Shown one piece after another: positions 6,023 to 51,675 of a stretch of 53,115 nucleotides of DNA; position 1 is the stretch's first letter; each line of letters starts with the position of its first letter. This DNA comes from an uncultured PS1 clade bacterium. GTDB lineage: Bacteria; Pseudomonadota; Alphaproteobacteria; MED-G09. The stretch lies in the NCBI GenBank assembly GCA_902533755.1, contig CACANC010000005.1:1-53115 (forward strand), written 5' to 3'. Made by a program: the position numbers and the translations under genes. Below the pieces are notes generated by a model, which saw only the letters and a program-made list of their open reading frames with translations, was not told the origin of the DNA and searched no databases.

Positions 6023-8227
6023 ATGAATTTAATAGATCAATATAAAGATATAGAAATAGTTGATGCCCTTGAAGAAAGGTACTTAGCATATGCATTAACA
6101 ACGATAATGGATAGAGCTCTTCCCGATGTAAAAGATGGCCTAAAACCAGTACACAGAAGACTTCTTTTTGCAATGAGACAACTAAATTTATCTCCTAATT
6201 CTTCATTTAAAAAATCCGCAAGAATAGTAGGGGAGGTAATGGGAAGATTTCATCCCCACGGTGATCAAGCAATTTATGATACATTGGTAAGATTAGCTCA
6301 AGATTTTTCTGTAAGATGGCCATTAATTAATGGGCAGGGGAATTTTGGGAATATTGATGGCGATAATGCTGCTGCAATGCGTTATACAGAATCAAAATTA
6401 ACTACAATTTCTGAGTTATTATTATCTGGAATTGATGAAGAATCTGTTGATTTTAGATTAACATACGATGAAGTTGATAAAGAGCCTATTGTTTTACCTG
6501 CAAATTTCCCTAATCTTCTTGCAAATGGATCATCAGGAATTGCTGTTGGTATGGCGACATCGATACCTCCGCACAATGTTGAAGAGATATGCAATGCATC
6601 ACTCCATCTTATAAAACATAGAAATATGCATTTTGATAAACTAATTGATTTTATTCCTGGGCCTGATTTTCCTACTGGAGGAGAAATTTTTGAATCTAAA
6701 GATTCAATCCTTAATATTTATAAAACAGGGAAAGGAAATATAAGGATAAGAGCTAAGTGGGAAATTGAAAAAGAAAAAAGAGGGGTATGGAAGATTGTTG
6801 TTAATGAAATACCATACCAAGTTAATAAGGGTAAATTAATTGAAAAAATAGCTCAACTTATTATAGATAAAAAAATACCCATACTTGACGATATTCGTGA
6901 TGAATCTGATGAAAGTATTAGATTAATTTTAGTTCCCAGAAATAGAGATGTAGATCCCGAGCAATTAATGGAAGCTTTATTTAGTCTATCAGATTTAGAA
7001 ACTAGGTTTTCAGTTAATTTAAATGCAATAAACAATAATATACCTAAGGTACACAATCTTCGTGATTTACTTCTTGCTTGGATTGATCACAGAAGGGATG
7101 TGCTTGTAAGAAGAAGTACATTTAAGTTAAATCAAATTAAAACCCGAATGGAAATATTAAGTGGCTATTTAATTGTTTATGTAAATCTTGATGAGGTTAT
7201 CAAAATTATTAGAGAAGAAGATGAGCCAAAAATTAAATTAAAAAAGAAATTTGATTTAAATGATAATCAAGCCAATTCAATTTTAAATATGCGTCTTAGG
7301 TCATTAAGGAAGTTAGAAGAACTAAAAATTAAAGAAGAATATGACTCATTAAAAATAGAGAAATCAATTTTAGGTAAACTAATTAAATCAGATGATATTC
7401 AATGGAAGGAGGTATCAAAAGAAATTAAAGAAATAAAAAAAGATTTTTCTAAAAAAACAGACTTAGGAAAAAGAAGAACAAAAATTAACTATAATGCAGA
7501 AATTTTAGATATTGATCTTAATTTTTCTGAACCTGCAGAACCTATTACTGTTGTCTTATCAAAAGAGGGTTGGATCAAGACACTAAAAGGCCTTGATAAT
7601 GATGTTGCAGAAATTAAATTTAAAGATGGAGATGACTTACTTTTTATTCATGAAACAATGAGTGATGAAAAGCTTTTAATTTTTTCTTCAAATGGAAAAT
7701 TTTATACAATTGATGCAAGTCAACTTCCTTCTGGAAGAGGTTATGGAGATCCGTTAAAGCTCTTAATTGATCTACAAGATGATGATAAAATTATTTCCTT
7801 ATATTCGTTTTCTCAAGCTGGAGAACTAGTTATAGCTTCAAAATTTGGATATGGTTTTATAGTATCTTTTGAGGATTTGATTTCAAATAGAAAAGCTGGA
7901 AAACAAATATTAAACTTATCAAGCGATGATGAGGCTATTAGTTCAGATTATTTAAAAGGAACCAATATTGCGGTTATTGGCGAAAATAAAAAAATGTTAT
8001 TATTTAATCAAGAAGAACTCCCTAGGATGTCAAAAGGCAAAGGAGTTAGACTTCAGAAATATAAAGAAGGAAATCTTAAATCGATTATAAGTTTTAATTA
8101 TAGCGAAGGATTAAACATTGTTGATAATAATGGAAGAAATAGAAATTTTGATGATATTGAAAATTGGCTAGGAAAAAGAGGCCAAGCAGGCAAAAAAGCT
8201 CCTAAGGGCTTTCCTAGAAACTTCTAA
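6023..8227 (+). CDS. parC: DNA topoisomerase IV subunit A
   Basis: 734 aa with [31 protein letters not shown] and AAMRYTE. It is shorter than the gyrA paralog at 38594. Confidence 0.92.
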   Translation: MNLIDQYKDIEIVDALEERYLAYALTTIMDRALPDVKDGLKPVHRRLLFAMRQLNLSPNSSFKKSARIVGEVMGRFHPHGDQAIYDTLVRLAQDFSVRWPLINGQGNFGNIDGDNAAAMRYTESKLTTISELLLSGIDEESVDFRLTYDEVDKEPIVLPANFPNLLANGSSGIAVGMATSIPPHNVEEICNASLHLIKHRNMHFDKLIDFIPGPDFPTGGEIFESKDSILNIYKTGKGNIRIRAKWEIEKEKRGVWKIVVNEIPYQVNKGKLIEKIAQLIIDKKIPILDDIRDESDESIRLILVPRNRDVDPEQLMEALFSLSDLETRFSVNLNAINNNIPKVHNLRDLLLAWIDHRRDVLVRRSTFKLNQIKTRMEILSGYLIVYVNLDEVIKIIREEDEPKIKLKKKFDLNDNQANSILNMRLRSLRKLEELKIKEEYDSLKIEKSILGKLIKSDDIQWKEVSKEIKEIKKDFSKKTDLGKRRTKINYNAEILDIDLNFSEPAEPITVVLSKEGWIKTLKGLDNDVAEIKFKDGDDLLFIHETMSDEKLLIFSSNGKFYTIDASQLPSGRGYGDPLKLLIDLQDDDKIISLYSFSQAGELVIASKFGYGFIVSFEDLISNRKAGKQILNLSSDDEAISSDYLKGTNIAVIGENKKMLLFNQEELPRMSKGKGVRLQKYKEGNLKSIISFNYSEGLNIVDNNGRNRNFDDIENWLGKRGQAGKKAPKGFPRNF

Positions 8228-44694: not shown

Positions 44695-44804
44695 AAATGC
44701 CCTCTTTTTTGAAATTAGCATATTTAAATGAAATTCAAAATATCTTAATTTTAATCGATTTTATTTGATTTGACCTTAGCAAACATTTAAAAGGTATCTT
44801 GTGT

Positions 44805-44880
44805 GGGCCCGTAGCTCAGTAGGTAGAGCACCTCCCTTTTAAGGAGATTGTCACAGGTTCGATCCCTGTCGGGCTCACCA
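44805..44880 (+). tRNA. tRNA-Lys (anticodon UUU), CCA encoded
   Basis: Manual cloverleaf. Acceptor GGGCCCG/CGGGCTC, D arm GCTC-AGTAGGTA-GAGC, anticodon arm CCTCC-CTTTTAA-GGAGA (one C-A mismatch at 27:43), variable loop TTGTC, T arm ACAGG-TTCGATC-CCTGT, discriminator A, then CCA. Confidence 0.93.
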
Positions 44881-44881
44881 T

Positions 44882-44911
44882 CCTTAAACCAAGGTCAGCC
44901 TTAGTTTTAAG
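44882..44911 (+). terminator. Hairpin immediately 3' of tRNA-Lys (possible tRNA terminator or processing element), conserved in all long module copies
   Basis: CCTTAAACCAAGG-TCAG-CCTTAGTTTTAAG followed by a T-rich stretch. In copy C (48872-48901) a C-to-T change converts the C-A mismatch into a T-A pair. Confidence 0.45.
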
Positions 44912-44948
44912 AAATTTTCCACTCAAATTATATTTCCTGAATTTATAA

Positions 44949-44970
44949 GTTTTCGCAAAGTTTTCGCAAA
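44949..44970 (+). promoter_or_regulatory. Tandem 11-bp direct repeat GTTTTCGCAAA x2 (candidate protein-binding site)
   Basis: Exact tandem duplication with 11-bp periodicity. The same position in other module copies carries variant pairs. Confidence 0.5.
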
Positions 44971-45021
44971 AAAATTTGTGCTAGGTGAAAAAAGAGATAA
45001 GATTTACTCTGGAGCTAACAA

Positions 45022-45630
45022 ATGACAAAGATAGTATATGTTTTAACAAACCCCGCAATGCCTGGCTATGTAAAGATTGGAAAAACAGATAACCTAGTGG
45101 AAAGATTAAAGAGTCTTGATAGAACATCCACTCCTTTGCCTTTTCAGTGTGAATATGCAGCCGAGGTTAATGATGCAGACAAAGTTGAGAAGATTCTTCA
45201 TGATATTTTTGCTGATAAACGCGTAAGAACGAATAGAGAGTTTTTTGAAGTAGACCCTCACCAGATAATTCGTGCCTTCGATCTGCAGGATCATAAAGAT
45301 GTTACGCCAAAAGATGATATCTTTGAAACTGAAGAAGATAAAAAAGCAGTTTTTAAAAAGACTGAATTAAGATCGAGGTTCAATTTTGAAATGGTTAAAA
45401 TTAAACCCGGAATAGAATTATATTTTGCAAAAGATGAAAATATTAAATGTATAGTTAAAGATAAATTTCAGATAGAATTTGAGGGTGAAATACAATCTTT
45501 ATCTCAATCAGCTAAGATAATAATGGATAGACTTGGTTATAATTGGAAACAAATACAGGGTCCCGGCTATTGGATGTATGATAATGAAACTCTTCACGAA
45601 AGAAGAATAAGAATGGAAACCAATGAATAA
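45022..45630 (+). CDS. T5orf172 / GIY-YIG-superfamily (MUG113-like) domain protein with a small C-terminal domain of unknown function (DUF4357-like pattern)
   Basis: N-terminus IVYVLTNPAMPGYVKIGKTDNLVERLKSL...EKILHDIFADKRVRTNREFFEV fits the T5orf172 pattern. C-terminal part: IEFEGEIQSLSQSAKIIMDRLGYNWKQIQGPGYWMY. Confidence 0.75.
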   Translation: MTKIVYVLTNPAMPGYVKIGKTDNLVERLKSLDRTSTPLPFQCEYAAEVNDADKVEKILHDIFADKRVRTNREFFEVDPHQIIRAFDLQDHKDVTPKDDIFETEEDKKAVFKKTELRSRFNFEMVKIKPGIELYFAKDENIKCIVKDKFQIEFEGEIQSLSQSAKIIMDRLGYNWKQIQGPGYWMYDNETLHERRIRMETNE

Positions 45631-45632
45631 AT

Positions 45633-46967
45633 ATGTTTGAGGACTGGCTTAAAAAAGAAAAGAACTTAACAAACACATCTATATCTAAATATTTAAGTGC
45701 TATAGAAAAAATTAATTCTGATTTATTGAGTAAAGAAATTATAAAATCCTCTATTGAAGATTTAAATGAATATGAATTAAGAAAAATAAAGAATAATTAT
45801 TTTAATATCCCTGAAATAGAAGAATTAGATAGCAAAGGTCATAGAATGTATTCTGTGGCATTCAATCATTATATTTCTTACAAAGTCTCTTATAAAACTA
45901 AAATTAAAAATGAAAGCCTAGGTTATGTTTTAAAAGAAATTATTACTAAATATCCCGACGCAATTAAAGAACCAATTCACAATCATAGTTTAGCTGCATT
46001 TATCAGAACAACTGCAGTAGAAATTATCAAAAGTAATCTACCTGAAAAATTTAAATCATTTAAAGTAAAGGGATCAGCTGGAGAAGGGCGATGGATTGGT
46101 ACAGGGAAATCAGAAAGAAATCCATGGATTGCTGTATTAAATAAGAATATCACTAGTGGTGCATCTAAAGGGTACTACACAACTTATTCGTTCATTCATA
46201 AAAGTGATTTTATAATATTAAGTGTTGCTCAATCTGATCAAGAGATGGAATCTAAATATTCTAATAATAAAATTCCTAAGGTTTTGAATAATTATGCAGA
46301 TCTTATGAGGTTACAGCTAAATTCAAAAAAATATTCAAAATTCGACTCAGGTATCCCAGAGGTACTGGATAAAAATGGAGATAAGTTATTTTTAAATCGT
46401 ATTGGTGCGGTTTATCATAAAAAGTATAATATAAATGAACTTCCAAGCGATAAAGAGTTAAAGGAAGACCTTTCTTTAATGTTAGAAGCTTATTGGGATA
46501 TTTATAAAAATGGTGGACGACCAGGTTTAGAAAATGAAATAATTCAAAATAACGAATTCGATCCTAACAATATTGATTCTGAAAAAGAAAAAGTTCTTAG
46601 AAGTGTCACCTATAGAAGAGGTCAAAAAAAATTTCGTGATAACCTTCTTAGAGCATATGATTCAGAATGTGTGATGTCTGGATGTAGGGAAGAAGAGGTA
46701 TTACAAGCAGCGCATATTCTTCCATATACTGATGCTGAAACAAATAAGATAGATAACGGGTTACTTTTAAGAGCTGATCTTCATAACTTATTTGATTTAG
46801 ATTTAATATCAATTAATCCTAAAGATTTTACTATTTTAGTTTCAAGAGAGATTAAGGATTCAGATTATATAAAATTACATGGAAAAGAAATAAAGATGCC
46901 CAAGAGTAAAATTAAAAGTCCTAGTAAAAAAGCTTTAAAAATACATTTTAAGAATTTTAAGGGGTAA
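45633..46967 (+). CDS. three-part protein with an N-terminal helical domain, a DUF3578 (McrB N-terminal-like DNA-binding) domain and a C-terminal HNH nuclease; putative Type IV (modification-dependent) restriction-like enzyme
   Basis: FKVKGSAGEGRWIGTGKSERNPWIAVLNKN...GYYTTYSF resembles the DUF3578 core. C-terminus: YRRGQKKFRDNLLRAYDSECVMSGCREEEVLQAAHILPY...NGLLLRADLHNLFDLDLISI, an HNH_2-type motif. It starts 2 nt after the upstream stop. Confidence 0.75.
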   Translation: MFEDWLKKEKNLTNTSISKYLSAIEKINSDLLSKEIIKSSIEDLNEYELRKIKNNYFNIPEIEELDSKGHRMYSVAFNHYISYKVSYKTKIKNESLGYVLKEIITKYPDAIKEPIHNHSLAAFIRTTAVEIIKSNLPEKFKSFKVKGSAGEGRWIGTGKSERNPWIAVLNKNITSGASKGYYTTYSFIHKSDFIILSVAQSDQEMESKYSNNKIPKVLNNYADLMRLQLNSKKYSKFDSGIPEVLDKNGDKLFLNRIGAVYHKKYNINELPSDKELKEDLSLMLEAYWDIYKNGGRPGLENEIIQNNEFDPNNIDSEKEKVLRSVTYRRGQKKFRDNLLRAYDSECVMSGCREEEVLQAAHILPYTDAETNKIDNGLLLRADLHNLFDLDLISINPKDFTILVSREIKDSDYIKLHGKEIKMPKSKIKSPSKKALKIHFKNFKG

Positions 46968-46968
46968 G

Positions 46969-47050
46969 TTCCTTATTAGGAAGAGTGTCACATTCTAACT
47001 TAATTTATCAAAAAATATGATGAATAGTTTTCGCAAAGTTTTCGCAAAAA
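46969..47050 (+). repeat. Degenerate, internally deleted boundary module (E1): tRNA core-like TTAGGAAGAGTGTCAC plus GTTTTCGCAAA x2
   Basis: 46976-46991 resembles the tRNA segment TTAAGGAGATTGTCAC. 47027-47048 is identical to the tandem motif of copy A. About 75% identical by eye to 50262-50331. Confidence 0.7.
47027..47048 (+). promoter_or_regulatory. Tandem 11-bp direct repeat GTTTTCGCAAA x2
   Basis: Exact tandem, identical to 44949-44970. Confidence 0.5.
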
Positions 47051-47177
47051 TAGTTTTACTACATCTTTTTTACTCTTTTCTACTCTTTCGTTTTTTTAAT
47101 ACTAAACATAGGGTTTACTTAGGTTTCAAGGTAAATAACTGTATTTATTAAACATATAAAATATACTACACCAATGG

Positions 47178-47417
47178 CTTTTAAGGAGATTGTCACAGGT
47201 TCGATCCCTGTCGGGCTCACCATCCTTAAACCAAGGTCAGCCTTAGTTTTAAGAGATTTTCCACTCAAATTATATTTATCTAATTTCTTGGTTTCCGCAA
47301 AGTTTCCGCAAAAAAATTTGTGCTAGGTGAAAAAAGTATTACTCTTTGGTTAGCAAGGAGGAACTTATGAAGAAAGTTTTATTAGGTTTAGTTATCGCCG
47401 TAATGATGACTGGTAGT
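47178..47417 (+). repeat. Boundary module copy B: orphan tRNA-Lys 3' half plus leader, RBS and the first 17 codons of a lipoprotein signal peptide
   Basis: 47178-47222 is identical to tRNA positions 32-76. Similarity to copy C continues through AAGGAGGAACTTATGAAGAAAGTTTTATTAGGTTT...ATGATGACTGG. Confidence 0.9.
47291..47312 (+). promoter_or_regulatory. Tandem 11-bp direct repeat GTTTCCGCAAA x2 (variant)
   Basis: Both units carry the same T-to-C change relative to copy A. Confidence 0.5.
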
Positions 47418-47438
47418 GGGAATAGTTTAAGGAACTAA
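47367..47438 (+). pseudogene. Orphan 5' fragment (signal peptide only) of the NTF2-like lipoprotein gene
   Basis: MKKVLLGLVIAVMMTGSGNSLRN*. The first 17 residues are near-identical to the N-terminus of the 49014 gene, after which the sequence diverges and stops. Confidence 0.7.
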
Positions 47439-47446
47439 TAAGTTAA

Positions 47447-48193
47447 ATGAGCGGAACAATAACTCTTTTAATTATTCTTCTTGCTACTCTAAGTACAGCA
47501 TTTTTGTCGTCAATTTTTGGAATGTTAGGCGGCCTCATTTTAATAGGTGTATTGATTACTATAATGCCTGTAAGTCAGGCAATGGTCTTACATGGATTAA
47601 TTCAATTAACATCAAATGGTTATCGAGCATGGCTTAATAAAACAGATATTAAATGGAATATTGTTTCTACATTAATTATCGGTAATATTATCTCACTAGT
47701 TTGTTTATTCTCATTAGCTTTTGTACCTGATAAAATAACTGTACTTTTAGTATTAGGTTTATTGCCATACATAGCTTGGGCGATTCCTAAAAATAACTCC
47801 TTAGATGTAAGCAAAAAACCAATTGGTATTTTAGCTGGCATGGTGGTGGTGGGTAGTAATCTTCTATCTGGTACAGGAGGCCCTTTATTAGATATTTTTT
47901 TCCAGCGAGTAAATATGAATCGCCATCAGGTTGTTGCAACCAAAGCTGTAGCTCAAAGTTTAGGCCATATATCTAAGATAATATTTTTTGGTTTTCTTAC
48001 AACATCTAAATTTAATACTTGGCCAAGTTTTTGGCTAATTTTTTTTGCTGTGATAGCTTCTGTTATCGGAACTACTTTAGGAAAAATAATATTAGATAAA
48101 ATTGACGATAGAACCTTCTTTGTATGGACACAAAGCATCTTACTAACTATTGGTGCTGTGTTTATAGCCTATGCACTCTATCTAATGAAATGA
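47447..48193 (+). CDS. TauE/SafE (TSUP, DUF81) family anion exporter
   Basis: 248 aa, about 7-8 TM segments, with glycine-rich motifs FGMLGGLILIGVL and GSNLLSGTGGPLL typical of the family. Confidence 0.75.
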   Translation: MSGTITLLIILLATLSTAFLSSIFGMLGGLILIGVLITIMPVSQAMVLHGLIQLTSNGYRAWLNKTDIKWNIVSTLIIGNIISLVCLFSLAFVPDKITVLLVLGLLPYIAWAIPKNNSLDVSKKPIGILAGMVVVGSNLLSGTGGPLLDIFFQRVNMNRHQVVATKAVAQSLGHISKIIFFGFLTTSKFNTWPSFWLIFFAVIASVIGTTLGKIILDKIDDRTFFVWTQSILLTIGAVFIAYALYLMK

Positions 48194-48261
48194 GCTATAT
48201 AAGGAAGGTTTAATACTTACAGAGATTGGAGCAAAGAAACTGATGCAACTGTTTTTTTATA

Positions 48262-48798
48262 TCAATTTTCAAAATTACCCTCTAAAGGCCAGGGATCGCA
48301 TTTATATTCTTTTTCACCAAAAAAATCAGTCAAAGTATCTTTATTTCTATCGTAAAACCAAACTGCAATAATATTTTCTATTTTTAAATCTGGAGTAGGA
48401 GTTAAAGGTTGATTGCAATAGGTTATCACATCATGAATATGATCCTCTAGATGAGTATTAGAAAGGCAATTTGGATCTGCATGTTCTTTGATATATTGAA
48501 GCTTTCCTGAAACTCTCTCTTGAACCCTGAAATGAAGATATGTATCCCCATTATATTTTTCTAATAACAAAACTACATAACGGCTTTCATGATTTTGTGC
48601 GCATCTGAGCATATGACTTAGAGAGAAATTATTTAAATCTTGTTTTGCGTAAGCTCTATTGTTTAAAAAGAAATAAGCAATAAGGGATAGGAAAAGTAAA
48701 ATTATAAGTGAAATTAAGCCACCCTTTATAATTTGCCTCCAAAACATTCCTACAAGAATTAATGTTACTATTATTATTAAAACTGTCATTATATTCAT
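48262..48798 (-). CDS. hypothetical membrane-anchored protein (2 N-terminal TM segments plus a Cys-containing soluble domain)
   Basis: Long ORF with a hydrophobic N-terminus and 4 Cys in the C-terminal domain. I recognise no family. Confidence 0.55.
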   Translation of the reverse strand: MNIMTVLIIIVTLILVGMFWRQIIKGGLISLIILLFLSLIAYFFLNNRAYAKQDLNNFSLSHMLRCAQNHESRYVVLLLEKYNGDTYLHFRVQERVSGKLQYIKEHADPNCLSNTHLEDHIHDVITYCNQPLTPTPDLKIENIIAVWFYDRNKDTLTDFFGEKEYKCDPWPLEGNFEN

Positions 48799-48825
48799 AT
48801 ATCAATAAATAAACCCAATATCTAT

Positions 48826-49064
48826 CTTTTAAGGAAATTGTCACAGGTTCGATCCCTGTCGGGCTCACCATCCTTAAACTAAGGCCAGCCTTAGTTTCAA
48901 GAGATTTTCCACTCAAAATATATTTATCTAATTCTTTGGTTTGCACAAGGTTTGCACAAAAAATTTGTGCTAGGTAAAAAAAGAGTTACTCTTTGGTTAA
49001 CAAGGAGGAACTTATGAAGAAAGTTTTATTAGGTTTGGTTATCGCCTCAATGATGACTGGAAGT
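48826..49064 (+). repeat. Boundary module copy C: orphan tRNA-Lys 3' half plus leader, here joined to a full-length lipoprotein gene (probably the ancestral tRNA flank)
   Basis: 48826-48870 matches tRNA positions 32-76 with 1 mismatch (GGAGA to GGAAA). The hairpin, tandem motif, TTTGTGCTAGGT box and RBS are all present. Confidence 0.9.
48939..48960 (+). promoter_or_regulatory. Tandem 11-bp direct repeat GTTTGCACAAG / GTTTGCACAAA (variant)
   Basis: Both units share the GCAC core change relative to copies A and B. Confidence 0.5.
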
Positions 49065-49457
49065 ATTTATGCATGCAAAACGCCTGAAGAGTTAATGGAT
49101 AATTATTTTAATGACTTTAGTTCTGGCGATATAAAAAAAGTTGAGAGAAATTATTCATTTCCATTAATCGTTATTCAAAACGGTAATAAAACCATTCACG
49201 ATGAAATTTCAACTTTTTTAAATTTTAAAGAAATTAAAAAAACTGGATGGAAAGAGTCAGTTATTAATTCAGTAATGATTATTTTAAAAAAAGATAAATC
49301 AGCTGTTACACAAGTGAATTTTTCAAGAGTTAATAACAAGGGTGATATATATTTAACAACAGATGCAAATTATATTCTTATAAAAGAAGATGAAGATTGG
49401 TACATCTCAGGAGTAATTATTGATAGCGATGTTCCACTTGGTATAGAAAATTATTAA
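49014..49457 (+). CDS. exported or lipoprotein-type NTF2-like (SnoaL/DUF4440-like) protein
   Basis: MKKVLLGLVIASMMTGSIYAC signal or lipobox-like sequence. AAGGAGGA lies 6 nt upstream of the ATG. Paralog of the 51208 gene (shared ending DEDWYISGVI versus DEEWLISGVF). Confidence 0.7.
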   Translation: MKKVLLGLVIASMMTGSIYACKTPEELMDNYFNDFSSGDIKKVERNYSFPLIVIQNGNKTIHDEISTFLNFKEIKKTGWKESVINSVMIILKKDKSAVTQVNFSRVNNKGDIYLTTDANYILIKEDEDWYISGVIIDSDVPLGIENY

Positions 49458-49530
49458 GGGAAATCGGATATTTAGAATATAGTCTGTTATATTTTAATGC
49501 TTGGTCTACATTGTGTGATTAGGAGGATTT

Positions 49531-50223
49531 TTAAGGTTTAAGTATTTTATTTAAATCTCTTACTTCTTTATCAACCATACAGATGGCATCAATTATTGTA
49601 GCGTTAGGGGAATCCTCTATCCTATACATCCATATATTATCACTTTTTTCAGTTAACTCTATTTCTTCACCATCACCCATTAAACCCGAGTAACCGAAGA
49701 TACGAACAGACCTCATTCTAAACTTATTACAATCTATTTGATTTAAAAATTTTACAGATTTGAAATCCTTCTCTTGTGTAGAGGTATCATGCATTGTGAT
49801 AATGTATCTAATATTATTATGTCGAGCGTAACTATTAAGATCAATATATACTTTGACACCATCTTTACTCTCACCTAATAATTCCCAAATTTCTGGATAG
49901 GTTTCCGCCTTAATCTTTAAATTATATTGTTCACTTACACTCGCAATACCACCAATATTTGTTGCATTGGTATAACCAAGTTCATCTAAGATTACTTTTG
50001 CTCTACCTGATCTATTACCGCTTCTGCAATACAATAAAATTTCTTCATCTTTTGAAATTTCATAATTTTCGATATCAGTTTTAATCTCTGATAAGGGAAT
50101 ATGAATAGCACCTTCTATATGCCCAGCATTCCATTCTTCATCAGTTCTAACATCTATCATTACGGAATAAGCATTCCCACTAAACCCAAATATCAAAACT
50201 AACGCTATAAGTATTTTATTCAT
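49531..50223 (-). CDS. periplasmic rhodanese-domain protein fused to a C-terminal domain of unknown function (adhesin-E-like pattern, tentative)
   Basis: Signal peptide MNKILIALVLIFGFSGNAYS. Rhodanese segment IDVRTDEEWNAGHIEGAIHIP...LLYCRSGNRSGRA with the active-site Cys loop. An about 120-aa C-terminal extension contains 2 Cys. Confidence 0.75.
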   Translation of the reverse strand: MNKILIALVLIFGFSGNAYSVMIDVRTDEEWNAGHIEGAIHIPLSEIKTDIENYEISKDEEILLYCRSGNRSGRAKVILDELGYTNATNIGGIASVSEQYNLKIKAETYPEIWELLGESKDGVKVYIDLNSYARHNNIRYIITMHDTSTQEKDFKSVKFLNQIDCNKFRMRSVRIFGYSGLMGDGEEIELTEKSDNIWMYRIEDSPNATIIDAICMVDKEVRDLNKILKP

Positions 50224-50261
50224 TAGAAAAATATAGCATAAAAAAATAAACCTGCGGCCAT

Positions 50262-50331
50262 TTCCTTATTAAGGAGAGTGTCAAACCTTAAATTAATTTA
50301 TAGATAAACATGATGACTATTTTTAACAAAG
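50262..50331 (+). repeat. Degenerate, internally deleted boundary module (E2): core-like TTAAGGAGAGTGTCA
   Basis: 50269-50283 matches the tRNA segment TTAAGGAGATTGTCA at 14/15 positions. The overall stretch is about 75% identical by eye to 46969-47038. Confidence 0.65.
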
Positions 50332-50443
50332 AGAATTTAGTTGTTACTATTGAATTTTTTAAAGAAAACACCAAATATAGTATATCATTCAAGTAGTAAG
50401 ATAATTCTTACAAAATGCCCTAATTTTCGTAATAGGAGTATTT

Positions 50444-51052
50444 ATGAAAAGAATTTGTTTAATATTTGGTCACCACAATACAAAAGACTCTTTTAATGCT
50501 GCTATAAGAGATGCTTTCATTGATGAGGCTGAAAAAATTGGTCATAAAATTGATCTAATAAATTTGTTCGATGAAGAAGAACAATTACCTTTTTACAGAA
50601 CAGATATTAATCCTCCTCCGCAAAAAGTACTAGATTATAGAGAAAGACTTGAAAAATCTGATGTTATGTTTTTGATGAGTGCATGTCATAATTTAAGAAT
50701 GAGTGGAATTACAGAAAATTGGATTGATTGGGTTTTACATCCAAAATGGTTCTTTTCATATAGATCGCTTTTACCCGATAGTAAATTTTTTGGGAACTAC
50801 GGTTATCCAGTTCCAGGCGCTATGAAAAATAAAATTGGAGTAGTTTCTATGACTTATGGAGGCCCAATGATAAGTTATTTTAACTTTTCCTTGTTTGATA
50901 ACATTCCATACAGAAGATTAAAAAAATCTGTTTTTTCTTTGGGCGGTTTAAAAATTAAATATTTAAGATTTTACTCTGTTCTTCCAATCATGACTAAAAA
51001 AATGTTTGATAAAAATATAAAAAAAGTAAGAAAATTTGCTCAAAGTTTATGA
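50444..51052 (+). CDS. flavodoxin-like fold NAD(P)H-dependent oxidoreductase (Flavodoxin_2 / quinone reductase-like)
   Basis: MKRICLIFGHHNTKDSFNAAIRDAFIDEAEKIGHKIDLINLF...ERLEKSDVMFL resembles the N-terminus of MdaB/KefG/NQO-type proteins. Confidence 0.7.
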   Translation: MKRICLIFGHHNTKDSFNAAIRDAFIDEAEKIGHKIDLINLFDEEEQLPFYRTDINPPPQKVLDYRERLEKSDVMFLMSACHNLRMSGITENWIDWVLHPKWFFSYRSLLPDSKFFGNYGYPVPGAMKNKIGVVSMTYGGPMISYFNFSLFDNIPYRRLKKSVFSLGGLKIKYLRFYSVLPIMTKKMFDKNIKKVRKFAQSL

Positions 51053-51055
51053 TAA

Positions 51056-51095
51056 GAGTAACTTATGAAGAAAGTTTTATTAGGTTTAGTCATTG
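51056..51095 (+). repeat. Leader-only fragment (D) of the boundary module: RBS-proximal sequence plus the first signal-peptide codons
   Basis: AACTTATGAAGAAAGTTTTATTAGGTTTAGT is identical to the copy B segment 47362-47392. Confidence 0.75.
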
Positions 51096-51181
51096 TAATA
51101 ATTATGGCAATATTATTCTTATTTTTTGGTAATTGGCTGGACGAACTAAAACATCTAATTAATGTCAATCATGTTCACTAA
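51065..51181 (+). CDS. 38-aa hydrophobic peptide whose first 9 codons derive from the repeated leader; may be a remnant rather than a gene
   Basis: MKKVLLGLVIVIIMAILFLFFGNWLDELKHLINVNHVH*, from manual translation. Confidence 0.3.
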   Translation: MKKVLLGLVIVIIMAILFLFFGNWLDELKHLINVNHVH

Positions 51182-51207
51182 TTTTACCTTTATTATTGGA
51201 GTATATA

Positions 51208-51675
51208 ATGAAAAAAATTTTATTAAGTTTAGTCATGACTTTAATAATGACGGCTAATGGATACGCAGATGAAATTGAAATTAAAAAAATAAAAGATAAA
51301 CATGATACTTATTATAAATACCTTTTTGAAAATGATATGAATAGTTTGGCTAAATTATTCTCTTTCCCCGCCGTTTTTAAGGGGTTCGTAAATGAAGTCC
51401 AAATTGCAAAAAATAAAAAAGAAATAAAAAATATCTACGAAAACCTTATTAAAGCAGCCCCTCAATCAAAATTTGCTAACAAAGGTATAAATTATACCGA
51501 AATAAACACAAAAGTTGAAAATAAATCAATTTTTAAAATGCGTGAAGATACATATATGCTTATAGTAAAGTATACTCAGAGTGATAAAAAAGATAATTCA
51601 TTAATTTTTTCTGGAAGAGCATCATATTTATTTATAAAAGATGATGAAGAGTGGTTAATATCAGGTGTATTTTAG
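51208..51675 (+). CDS. exported NTF2-like protein, paralog of 49014..49457
   Basis: MKKILLSLVMTLIMTANGYA signal peptide. Same length class and C-terminal DEEWLISGVF. GGAG lies upstream of the ATG at 51208. Confidence 0.7.
   Translation: MKKILLSLVMTLIMTANGYADEIEIKKIKDKHDTYYKYLFENDMNSLAKLFSFPAVFKGFVNEVQIAKNKKEIKNIYENLIKAAPQSKFANKGINYTEINTKVENKSIFKMREDTYMLIVKYTQSDKKDNSLIFSGRASYLFIKDDEEWLISGVF

Follow-up and report, generated by a model that had tools for sequence, protein, structure and literature searches.

Paired 11-bp direct repeats at a tRNA-Lys island of an uncultured PS1 clade bacterium as probable arm-type sites of tailed-phage tyrosine integrases

The 53,115-bp stretch of DNA analysed here (the window) is a whole 53-kb contig (CACANC010000005.1) of the 1.08-Mb assembly of an uncultured PS1 clade bacterium, which is 62% complete and has a G+C content of about 30%. 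The window carries a tRNA-Lys(UUU) gene, with queA and tgt located upstream, and in the region downstream of it four pairs of abutting 11-bp units, which very probably are arm-type sites, at which the heterobivalent (lambda-type) tyrosine integrase of a family of tailed phages, uncultivated, temperate and integrating into tRNA-Lys, would bind through its N-terminal arm-binding domain. The assignment is based on phage attachment sites (attP) that bear the same pairs on both arms beside a tyrosine integrase gene, and on covariation of the units with the N-terminus of that integrase.

A search of the window with the motif GTTTNCNCAAR produced 10 matches, when 1.15 were expected by chance (sd 0.94, largest 4). 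Eight of the ten constitute the four abutting pairs at 44949-44970, 47027-47048, 47291-47312 and 48939-48960, exactly where an earlier reading of the bare sequence (the original prediction) had placed them, and no further abutting pairs of this motif were found when the whole assembly was searched. The prediction had described the units as identical or nearly identical within a copy; the duplication is exact in the first three pairs, and also in the fourth once the register is shifted 1 base leftward (GGTTTGCACAA twice). The last 45 nt of the tRNA-Lys gene are repeated twice downstream (Table 1), and a conserved module of ca. 115 nt (direct-repeat family D1, module type L1) lies 3′ of the tRNA-Lys and of each 45-nt copy. 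According to the prediction, the pairs occupied the same position in each module. Three of them do, 68 nt past the 3′ end of tRNA-Lys or of a 45-nt fragment, but the 47027 pair belongs to another conserved module, has no tRNA fragment before it, and is separated by 129 nt from the tRNA fragment that follows. The module around the pairs is also more variable than the near-invariance that had been claimed, copy B being 94% and copy C 80-87% identical. The approximately 16 nt immediately 5′ of the pair divide into the subtypes TTTCCTGAATTTATAA, TTTATCTAATTTCTTG and TTTATCTATTTTTTAA (window positions 44925-44948, 47267-47290 and 48915-48938, and metagenome copies), and these subtypes are partially associated with particular unit types. 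An Rfam scan of 44700-50500 identified nothing besides the tRNA.

A 20-mer taken from the 129-nt spacer of the second module matched two IMG/VR viral contigs, both of which contained an uninterrupted attP. The order in the phage attP is the stop codon of a 99-aa gene, a unit pair, 129 nt, a 45-nt tRNA-Lys 3′ segment, 65 nt, and the same pair again; thus, the two module types of the window correspond to the two arms of attP, designated P (with the 129-nt spacer) and P′ (the L1 type). In seven attP sites the geometry was constant (129 nt, 45-nt core, 65 nt, with the pair starts 261 bp apart), although the spacers were only about 65% identical, and the respective distances in the window are 129, 45 and 68 nt. 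Spacing as strictly conserved as this would fit a folded intasome. The number of units per attP is exactly four, with the same strand for all of them, and in 10 attP sites the 45-nt core had two units 129 nt ahead of it and two units 65 nt past it. The core of viral contig L144 is identical to the 3′ part of the window tRNA-Lys, and that of L145 differs by 1 nt. The window pair GTTTTCGCAAA is the exact unit of the phage (L150) encoding integrase P0002, and all seven GT-type phage units with A as the tenth base recur in L1 modules of PS1/OCS116 contigs.

The products of viral contig L142 include tail fibres, a tape-measure protein and a methylase, and a tyrosine integrase of 449 aa is encoded just past attP. 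The integrase gene (int) starts 87-606 nt downstream of the P′ pair in the phages, and when the phage integrase was compared with GenBank phages, no match was found. L142 and L143 have unrelated open reading frames (ORFs) between attP and int. The 95%-identical phages L144 and L145 (positions 2234-2500 and 1895-2500, respectively) have unrelated small ORFs of 59 aa and 172 aa between the P′ pair and int, while other relatives have no ORF there and their int begins 87-90 nt past the pair. The stretch separating int from the P′ pair is a moron-like insertion spot.

An integration event at the tRNA core would split such an attP, leaving the P′ arm behind the restored tRNA and the P arm ahead of the tRNA fragment that has been displaced, which gives the order of tRNA, P′ arm, cargo, P arm and tRNA fragment. 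The window would accordingly represent a tandem pile of integrations at tRNA-Lys. The 44949 and 47027 pairs are then identical because they belong to the P′ and P arms of one element, a relation that the original prediction had missed, and the units would change in concert because one integrase variant must read all four units of an element.

That the pair itself is the crossover site (core) of a cassette-insertion system can be given almost no credence. Such a site would account for the 25-bp direct repeats around the 2-kb cassette 44971-47026, which is flanked by AGTTTTCGCAAAGTTTTCGCAAAAA, and some truncated modules end at or right past the units (L083, L084, L093 and L073). However, the uninterrupted phage attP has both pairs with a tRNA-like core between them, the repeated boundary of the array is the 45-nt tRNA fragment, and the flanking repeats are the P′ and P arms of one element. 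The L1 modules of these four contigs are truncated either at the start of the first unit (after TTTATAAGTAT) or just past the pair, with unrelated DNA following, and the arm units seem to be preferred breakpoints. Two related candidates were rejected on the same grounds: a lox- or dif-like core, with the variable centre as the overlap between inverted AAATTT arms, is contradicted by the attP pairs around the tRNA core, and a target-site duplication or excision footprint by the uninterrupted attP together with double units on both flanks.

For the covariation analysis, 19 further homologues of the integrase were collected and attP was retrieved for eleven of them, resulting in a small sample of 12 integrase/unit pairs with at least 10 unit types. 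The N-termini of the homologues were mosaic relative to the remaining protein, and the unit sequence followed integrase residues 4-34, not the remainder of the protein. The L142 and L143 integrases are 95% identical with 17 of their 23 differences within residues 1-46, and their units are GTATTCACAAA and GTTTCTGCAAA, respectively. When the attP-region DNA of these two phages was aligned, the mismatches were concentrated at all four units and at the start of int, whose first 120 nt contained 39 of its 62 mismatches; between these patches the DNA was almost identical. Integrases P0011 and P0012 are identical from residue 60 onwards, differ by 42% in residues 4-34, and have units GTTTCCACAAA and GTTGTCCCAAA. 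Integrase P0002 is 91% identical to that of L142, and has a distinct N-terminus and the unit GTTTTCGCAAA.

The reverse combination was also observed. P0007 and P0008 differ by 47% after residue 60 and are associated with different tRNA cores, but their N-termini are identical and both have GTTGTGCCAAA, a common unit that was predicted from the N-termini ahead of the look-up. The attP core of the P0008 phage (L155) is not tRNA-Lys-like, its loop CTTCTAA being Arg(UCU)-like, and as its arms and N-terminal domain are those of a tRNA-Lys-targeting phage (P0007), core and arm specificities reassort independently. The integrases of L142 and L146, which are 66% identical overall and similar in their N-termini, both have GTATTCACAAA; across these comparisons, an equal or very similar N-terminus went with equal units at integrase identities of 52-66%. 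Distant integrases (38% identity) retain the layout of two plus two units, with the unrelated units TTGTGTCCCA and AAAGTTGCACA. In Mantel tests over the 12 pairs, unit distance correlated with distance in residues 4-34 (r = 0.52, p = 2.5e-4), versus r = 0.21 (p = 0.09) for residues 60 to the end; among the eight closest integrases the respective values were r = 0.67 and r = 0.10. The P pair, the P′ pair and codons 4-46 switch together without the DNA that separates them, and simple linkage can therefore not account for the association. The correlation between motif variants and recombinase alleles that the original prediction had proposed to look for is present, between the units and the integrase N-terminal domain, and independent of the catalytic part. 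Its first option, a duplicated site for tandem binding of a protein whose specificity depends on the element (arm-type recombinase sites being one example), gains support from this covariation and from the pairs shared by both attP arms beside the tyrosine integrase gene, whereas its variants of a repressor operator and of mere local duplication or conversion do not.

Another phage accessory protein, either an excisionase (recombination directionality factor) or a repressor, might alternatively bind the pairs and co-switch with the integrase N-terminus by chance. Tandem direct repeats are typical of excisionase sites, as for lambda Xis, which counts for this explanation, as does a small ORF that separates attP from int in L142. 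We consider it unlikely, because the ORFs at this position are unrelated in L142 and L143 and absent where int starts 87-90 nt past the pair, because the pairs are on both arms and not on one, and because integrase residues 4-34 were the sole protein segment seen to covary, in a comparison that covered the integrases and not the rest of the phage genomes.

A role of the pairs as promoter or operator for the downstream gene of each cassette, in the manner of OmpR/PhoB-like direct repeats over a -35 box, is very unlikely. In many copies a ribosome-binding site and ATG do follow the P′ pair at a distance of 45-90 nt, and an 11-bp period is typical of response-regulator boxes. The P-arm pair, however, follows directly past a stop codon and is succeeded by 129 nt and the tRNA fragment, with no downstream gene; the at least 15 unit variants would demand equally many regulators; and the unit covaries with the integrase N-terminus. 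The P′ pair may still have a secondary promoter role. A hairpin or terminator was also tried and rejected, as the second unit pairs with a downstream TTTGTGC in some copies but not for e.g. GTTGTGCCAAA, the downstream box being constant.

The concerted change was confirmed in a larger sample. In total, about 25 further copies of the L1 module 3′ of tRNA-Lys were obtained from same-genus genomes and one metagenome scan; in one contig scan, 7 of 25 loci were genuine modules and the others chance matches. Units in L1 arms have the form GT[TA][TG]NNN[CAT]CAAA with at least 14 distinct cores, and the variable core was equal between both units in 21 of 22 double-unit arms (14 core types; shuffled mean 2.3, maximum 11). 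The first 53 nt or so of the L1 module are nearly invariant, even across genomes with flanks merely 76% identical, indicating that the module moves horizontally or is under strong constraint. Complete elements, delimited by two tRNA 3′ copies, contained the same pair at two places, 68 nt past the tRNA end on the left and about 129 nt ahead of the fragment that comes next (five elements, listed in Table 1), and the following element of each array bore a different pair. The right-hand pair was embedded in a conserved module of about 250 nt common to the complete-element contigs. When these five integrase-less elements were combined with the 10 phage attP sites, the P pair equalled the P′ pair in 15 of 15 cases, representing 10 unit types (under shuffling, mean 1.7 and maximum 9). 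The five small elements, from different metagenomes, have their arm modules in common and differ in cargo and in their matched unit types.

These counts bear on the explanation that the pairs are non-functional products of replication slippage or local gene conversion, which is extremely improbable. One and the same unit may be single or double in different contigs (GTATCTGCAAA, GTTTCTGCAAA and GTTGTGCCAAA), and A-runs beside the unit could promote slippage. Against this, the two-plus-two layout and its spacing are preserved down to 38% integrase identity, with unrelated units, and the P and P′ pairs agree throughout across approximately 260 bp of non-repeated DNA. Single-unit arms (L050, L060, L079, L111 and L121, e.g. 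GTATCTGCAAA once) occurred only at loci without a P-arm module, which fits unit loss by slippage once an arm is unused, i.e. decay after loss of function. In two same-genus loci, L015 (genome G011) and L016 (genome G003), the DNA after tRNA-Lys is very different, yet it contains direct repeats with 11-bp spacing (TGTGCACCTTT twice, and CAGAGACctga/CAGAGACtaaa, respectively), which probably derive from other integrase lineages with the same arm logic.

The phage integrase contains the tyrosine recombinase catalytic domain PF00589 (E = 2e-18), which was present in 22 of 22 members of the integrase family and not in the window, and its full structural model matched lambda Int, XerD and Tn1549 Int with a Foldseek probability of 1.00. 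In the AlphaFold models (AF2, with a predicted local distance difference test score, pLDDT, of 84.5) the N-terminal part consists of strands at residues 3-11, 14-23 and 29-31 and a helix at 44-60, and the variable N-terminal residues fall within the first two strands. This topology agrees with the three strands plus helix described for arm-binding domains (PMC8138268), and on the basis of these models the N-terminal domain likely belongs to the arm-binding fold.

Several points weigh against the pairs being arm-type sites of this integrase. The Pfam family Arm-DNA-bind_4 matched below threshold (19.8 bits, cut-off 22.3) in 13 of 22 members and over the strand-3/helix part only, and a Foldseek search of the isolated N-terminal domain against the PDB returned no significant match (none with E<1). 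A blind prediction for P0004 was one base off (GTATTCACAAA predicted, GTATCCACAAA observed). The L1 P′ arm differs in sequence from the phage P′ arm, the window-type L1 arm had no match in IMG/VR, and an integrase-bearing element with the L1 arm was not found. There is no cognate integrase at hand in the genomes of the host genus: no more than two tyrosine recombinases were found per genome, they fall into two length classes, and none is on the tRNA-Lys contigs. The tyrosine recombinase of the bacterium's own genome (433-aa ORF) looks Xer-like, and those of the other genus members were taken as Xer-type by length class; with only such presumed Xer-type recombinases present, a cognate integrase would have to come from an infecting phage. 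The assignment leaves unexplained how four units and the N-terminal codons co-switch amid near-unchanged intervening DNA. Finally, it rests on anatomy and covariation, from which we infer physical binding of the units by the N-terminal domain.

In this phage family, the first 35 or so integrase residues and the four units switch together, the catalytic body, tRNA core and spacers being constant or independently variable. A phage integrase whose arm type matches could mobilise the integrase-less element A of the window (described below) in trans. The shared arm modules, together with the seven phage unit types recurring in L1, suggest that such cassettes are kept compatible with phage integrases. 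It is possible, and we put it forward tentatively, that arm specificity represents a fast-switching modular address, in which the N-terminal domain and four units are exchanged as a set among phages with a common catalytic body and tRNA target, and that integrase-less PS1/OCS116 cassettes, such as element A with its defence-like cargo, keep matched arms for excision or movement by an integrase of the same address. The diversification would in that case be either an orthogonality system for elements stacked at one tRNA, or an arms race between phages and arm-mimicking cassettes.

As in lambda, where the attP sites P1, P2 and P′1-P′3 are bound by the N-terminal domain of the heterobivalent integrase, a tyrosine integrase gene adjoins an attP several hundred bp long, in which short direct repeats are located on both arms far from the crossover core and adjacent units are about one helical turn apart. 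The small N-terminal domain of three strands and a helix, described for arm-binding domains (PMC8138268), is here predicted. Unlike in lambda, the arrangement is symmetric with two plus two 11-bp units on one strand and the pairs at a fixed distance of 261 bp, a tRNA gene provides the core with its 3′ 45 nt, and integrases whose catalytic parts are nearly or fully identical vary greatly in arm specificity. Between lambda and HK022, core specificity differs and arm recognition is common.

Cis-mobilizable elements (CIMEs) are decayed integrated elements in which attL and attR are kept and the integrase is lost, and which form tandem accretions at tRNA genes (PMC5704250). Element A is similar in having both att cores and arms (44836-44994 and 46969-47222), and cargo, in coding for neither integration nor transfer, and in being one of several elements arranged in tandem at tRNA-Lys. 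The donor lineage here is, in contrast, a phage and not an integrative and conjugative element (ICE) or integrative and mobilizable element (IME), and with common arms, differing cargo and matched units the five small elements look more like a maintained family than like random decay. Additive flexible genomic islands and tycheposon-shaped islands (bioRxiv 10.1101/2020.12.28.424599; PMC10872708) resemble the present one in that a marine bacterium with a small genome has an island of small cargo cassettes, partitioned by repeated partial copies of a tRNA, and newer insertions displace older ones away from the tRNA. The window differs from tycheposons in that the hallmark genes (inward-facing integrase and replication module) were absent in the Pfam scan, and in that the recombinase source is a tailed phage. 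In the portions of these two sources covered by a term search, there was no mention of arm-type sites or integrase covariation. The folding imperfect inverted repeats (attC) of integrons, used by IntI, are different from the present units, which are direct repeats on one strand; as stated above, no third tyrosine recombinase was found in the genus.

Judged from the features in Table 1, element A (44881-47222) is an integrase-less cassette with both arms and matched units retained, and elements B and C retain P′ arms only. The module A type was also found 3′ of tRNA-Lys in same-genus genomes and metagenome contigs, and the P-arm module, among the family genomes, in the window's own genome only. 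No integrase gene was identified by Pfam scan in the cargo of element A (45022-46967), and its T5orf172 and MrcB_N/HNH genes resemble a defence pair against phages. For its 3′ part, the HNH gene has a homologue (84% identical) in L118, a small element with different arm units. The AAATATGATGAATAG stretch in the left part of the P-arm module resembles the final codons and stop of the phage 99-aa gene adjoining the P pair. Upstream of it, 46969-46995 is a near-copy of the tRNA-Lys anticodon arm (ACCTCCTTATTAAGGAGAGTGTCAC compared to ACCTCCCTTTTAAGGAGATTGTCAC of the tRNA), with the stem kept and two loop bases changed; near-copies were found also at 50262-50285 and in L085, L091, L105 and L118, and they could be pseudo-core sites or old crossover scars. 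In the remnant at 50262-50331, the unit has decayed to TTTTTAACAAAG, and the 129-nt spacer and tRNA fragment are missing. The copies of modules B and C run on into the 5′ untranslated region and first ca. 17 codons of a small exported NTF2-like protein (MKKVLLGLVIA...). In the window, NTF2-like stretches are located at 47368-47439, 48993-49457, 51066-51170 and 51196-51675; the copy following module B is truncated, and several paralogues are found farther downstream.

Table 1. Features of the tRNA-Lys island in the window, and unit pairs of complete elements in the window and on other contigs.
Feature	Position	Strand	Basis or remark
tRNA-Lys(UUU) gene	44805-44880	+	ARAGORN; Rfam tRNA, 68 bits
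3′ 45 nt of tRNA-Lys, from anticodon loop	44836-44880	+	core in common with phage attP
Module A, P′-type arm (type L1): 68-nt spacer, unit pair, conserved AAAAATTTGTGCTAGGTG stretch	44881-44994	+	family D1
Putative arm-type site pair, element A P′ arm: GTTTTCGCAAA twice	44949-44970	+	same pair on both attP arms of phage L150 (integrase P0002)
Element A cargo gene 1: T5orf172/MUG113 protein, 202 aa	45022-45630	+	Pfam scan
Element A cargo gene 2: MrcB_N + HNH_2 nuclease, 444 aa	45633-46967	+	Pfam scan
P-arm module, left part: degenerate tRNA anticodon-arm-like hairpin TTCCTTATTAGGAAGAGTGTCAC, then AAATATGATGAATAG	46969-47026	+	alignment with five such modules of other contigs
Putative arm-type site pair, element A P arm: GTTTTCGCAAA twice	47027-47048	+	129 nt before tRNA fragment, distance as in seven phage attP sites
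P-arm spacer, 129 nt	47049-47177	+	96.1-96.9% identical to P-arm spacers of L144, L145 and L150
45-nt tRNA-Lys 3′ fragment; element A attR core = element B attL core	47178-47222	+	
Module B, L1-type P′ arm, pair GTTTCCGCAAA twice at 47291-47312	47223-47336	+	
Second 45-nt tRNA-Lys 3′ fragment, one mismatch	48826-48870	+	
Module C, L1-type P′ arm, pair GTTTGCACAAG/GTTTGCACAAA at 48939-48960	48871-48984	+	
Decayed remnant of P-arm left part, 79% identical to 46969-47038	50262-50331	+	repeat family D6
Complete element, window A: GTTTTCGCAAA twice on each arm	pairs at 44949 and 47027		
Complete element, L074: GTATTCGCAAA twice on each arm	pairs at 116 and 1177		
Complete element, L085: GTTTGGACAAA twice on each arm	pairs at 146 and 2585		
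Complete element, L091: GTATCTGCAAA twice on each arm	pairs at 50 and 2581		
Complete element, L118: GTTTCTGCAAA twice on each arm	pairs at 6834 and 8596		

The mechanism is already known, following the lambda paradigm of a heterobivalent integrase with arm-type sites, and the island is built in the manner of additive islands at tRNA genes. To our knowledge, the fine-grained, modular switching of N-terminal domain together with arm units while integrase and attP are otherwise constant, the trace that it leaves in cassettes without an integrase, and this phage lineage are undescribed in the literature searched. The at least 10 unit types with distinct N-terminal domains, some of them on identical catalytic bodies, represent a natural experiment on arm-site recognition and a data set for how a three-stranded arm-binding sheet reads DNA, which could give mutually orthogonal integrases. 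For the host, the finding explains the build-up of an additive genomic island in a streamlined marine alphaproteobacterium (PS1/OCS116), the blocks being attachment arms of an uncultivated temperate phage lineage to which no deposited phage genome is related, and the explanation holds though the host genomes encode no island integrase. Cassettes that have matched arms and lack an integrase point to a way in which defence genes and other cargo may spread in bacteria without plasmids and conjugation.

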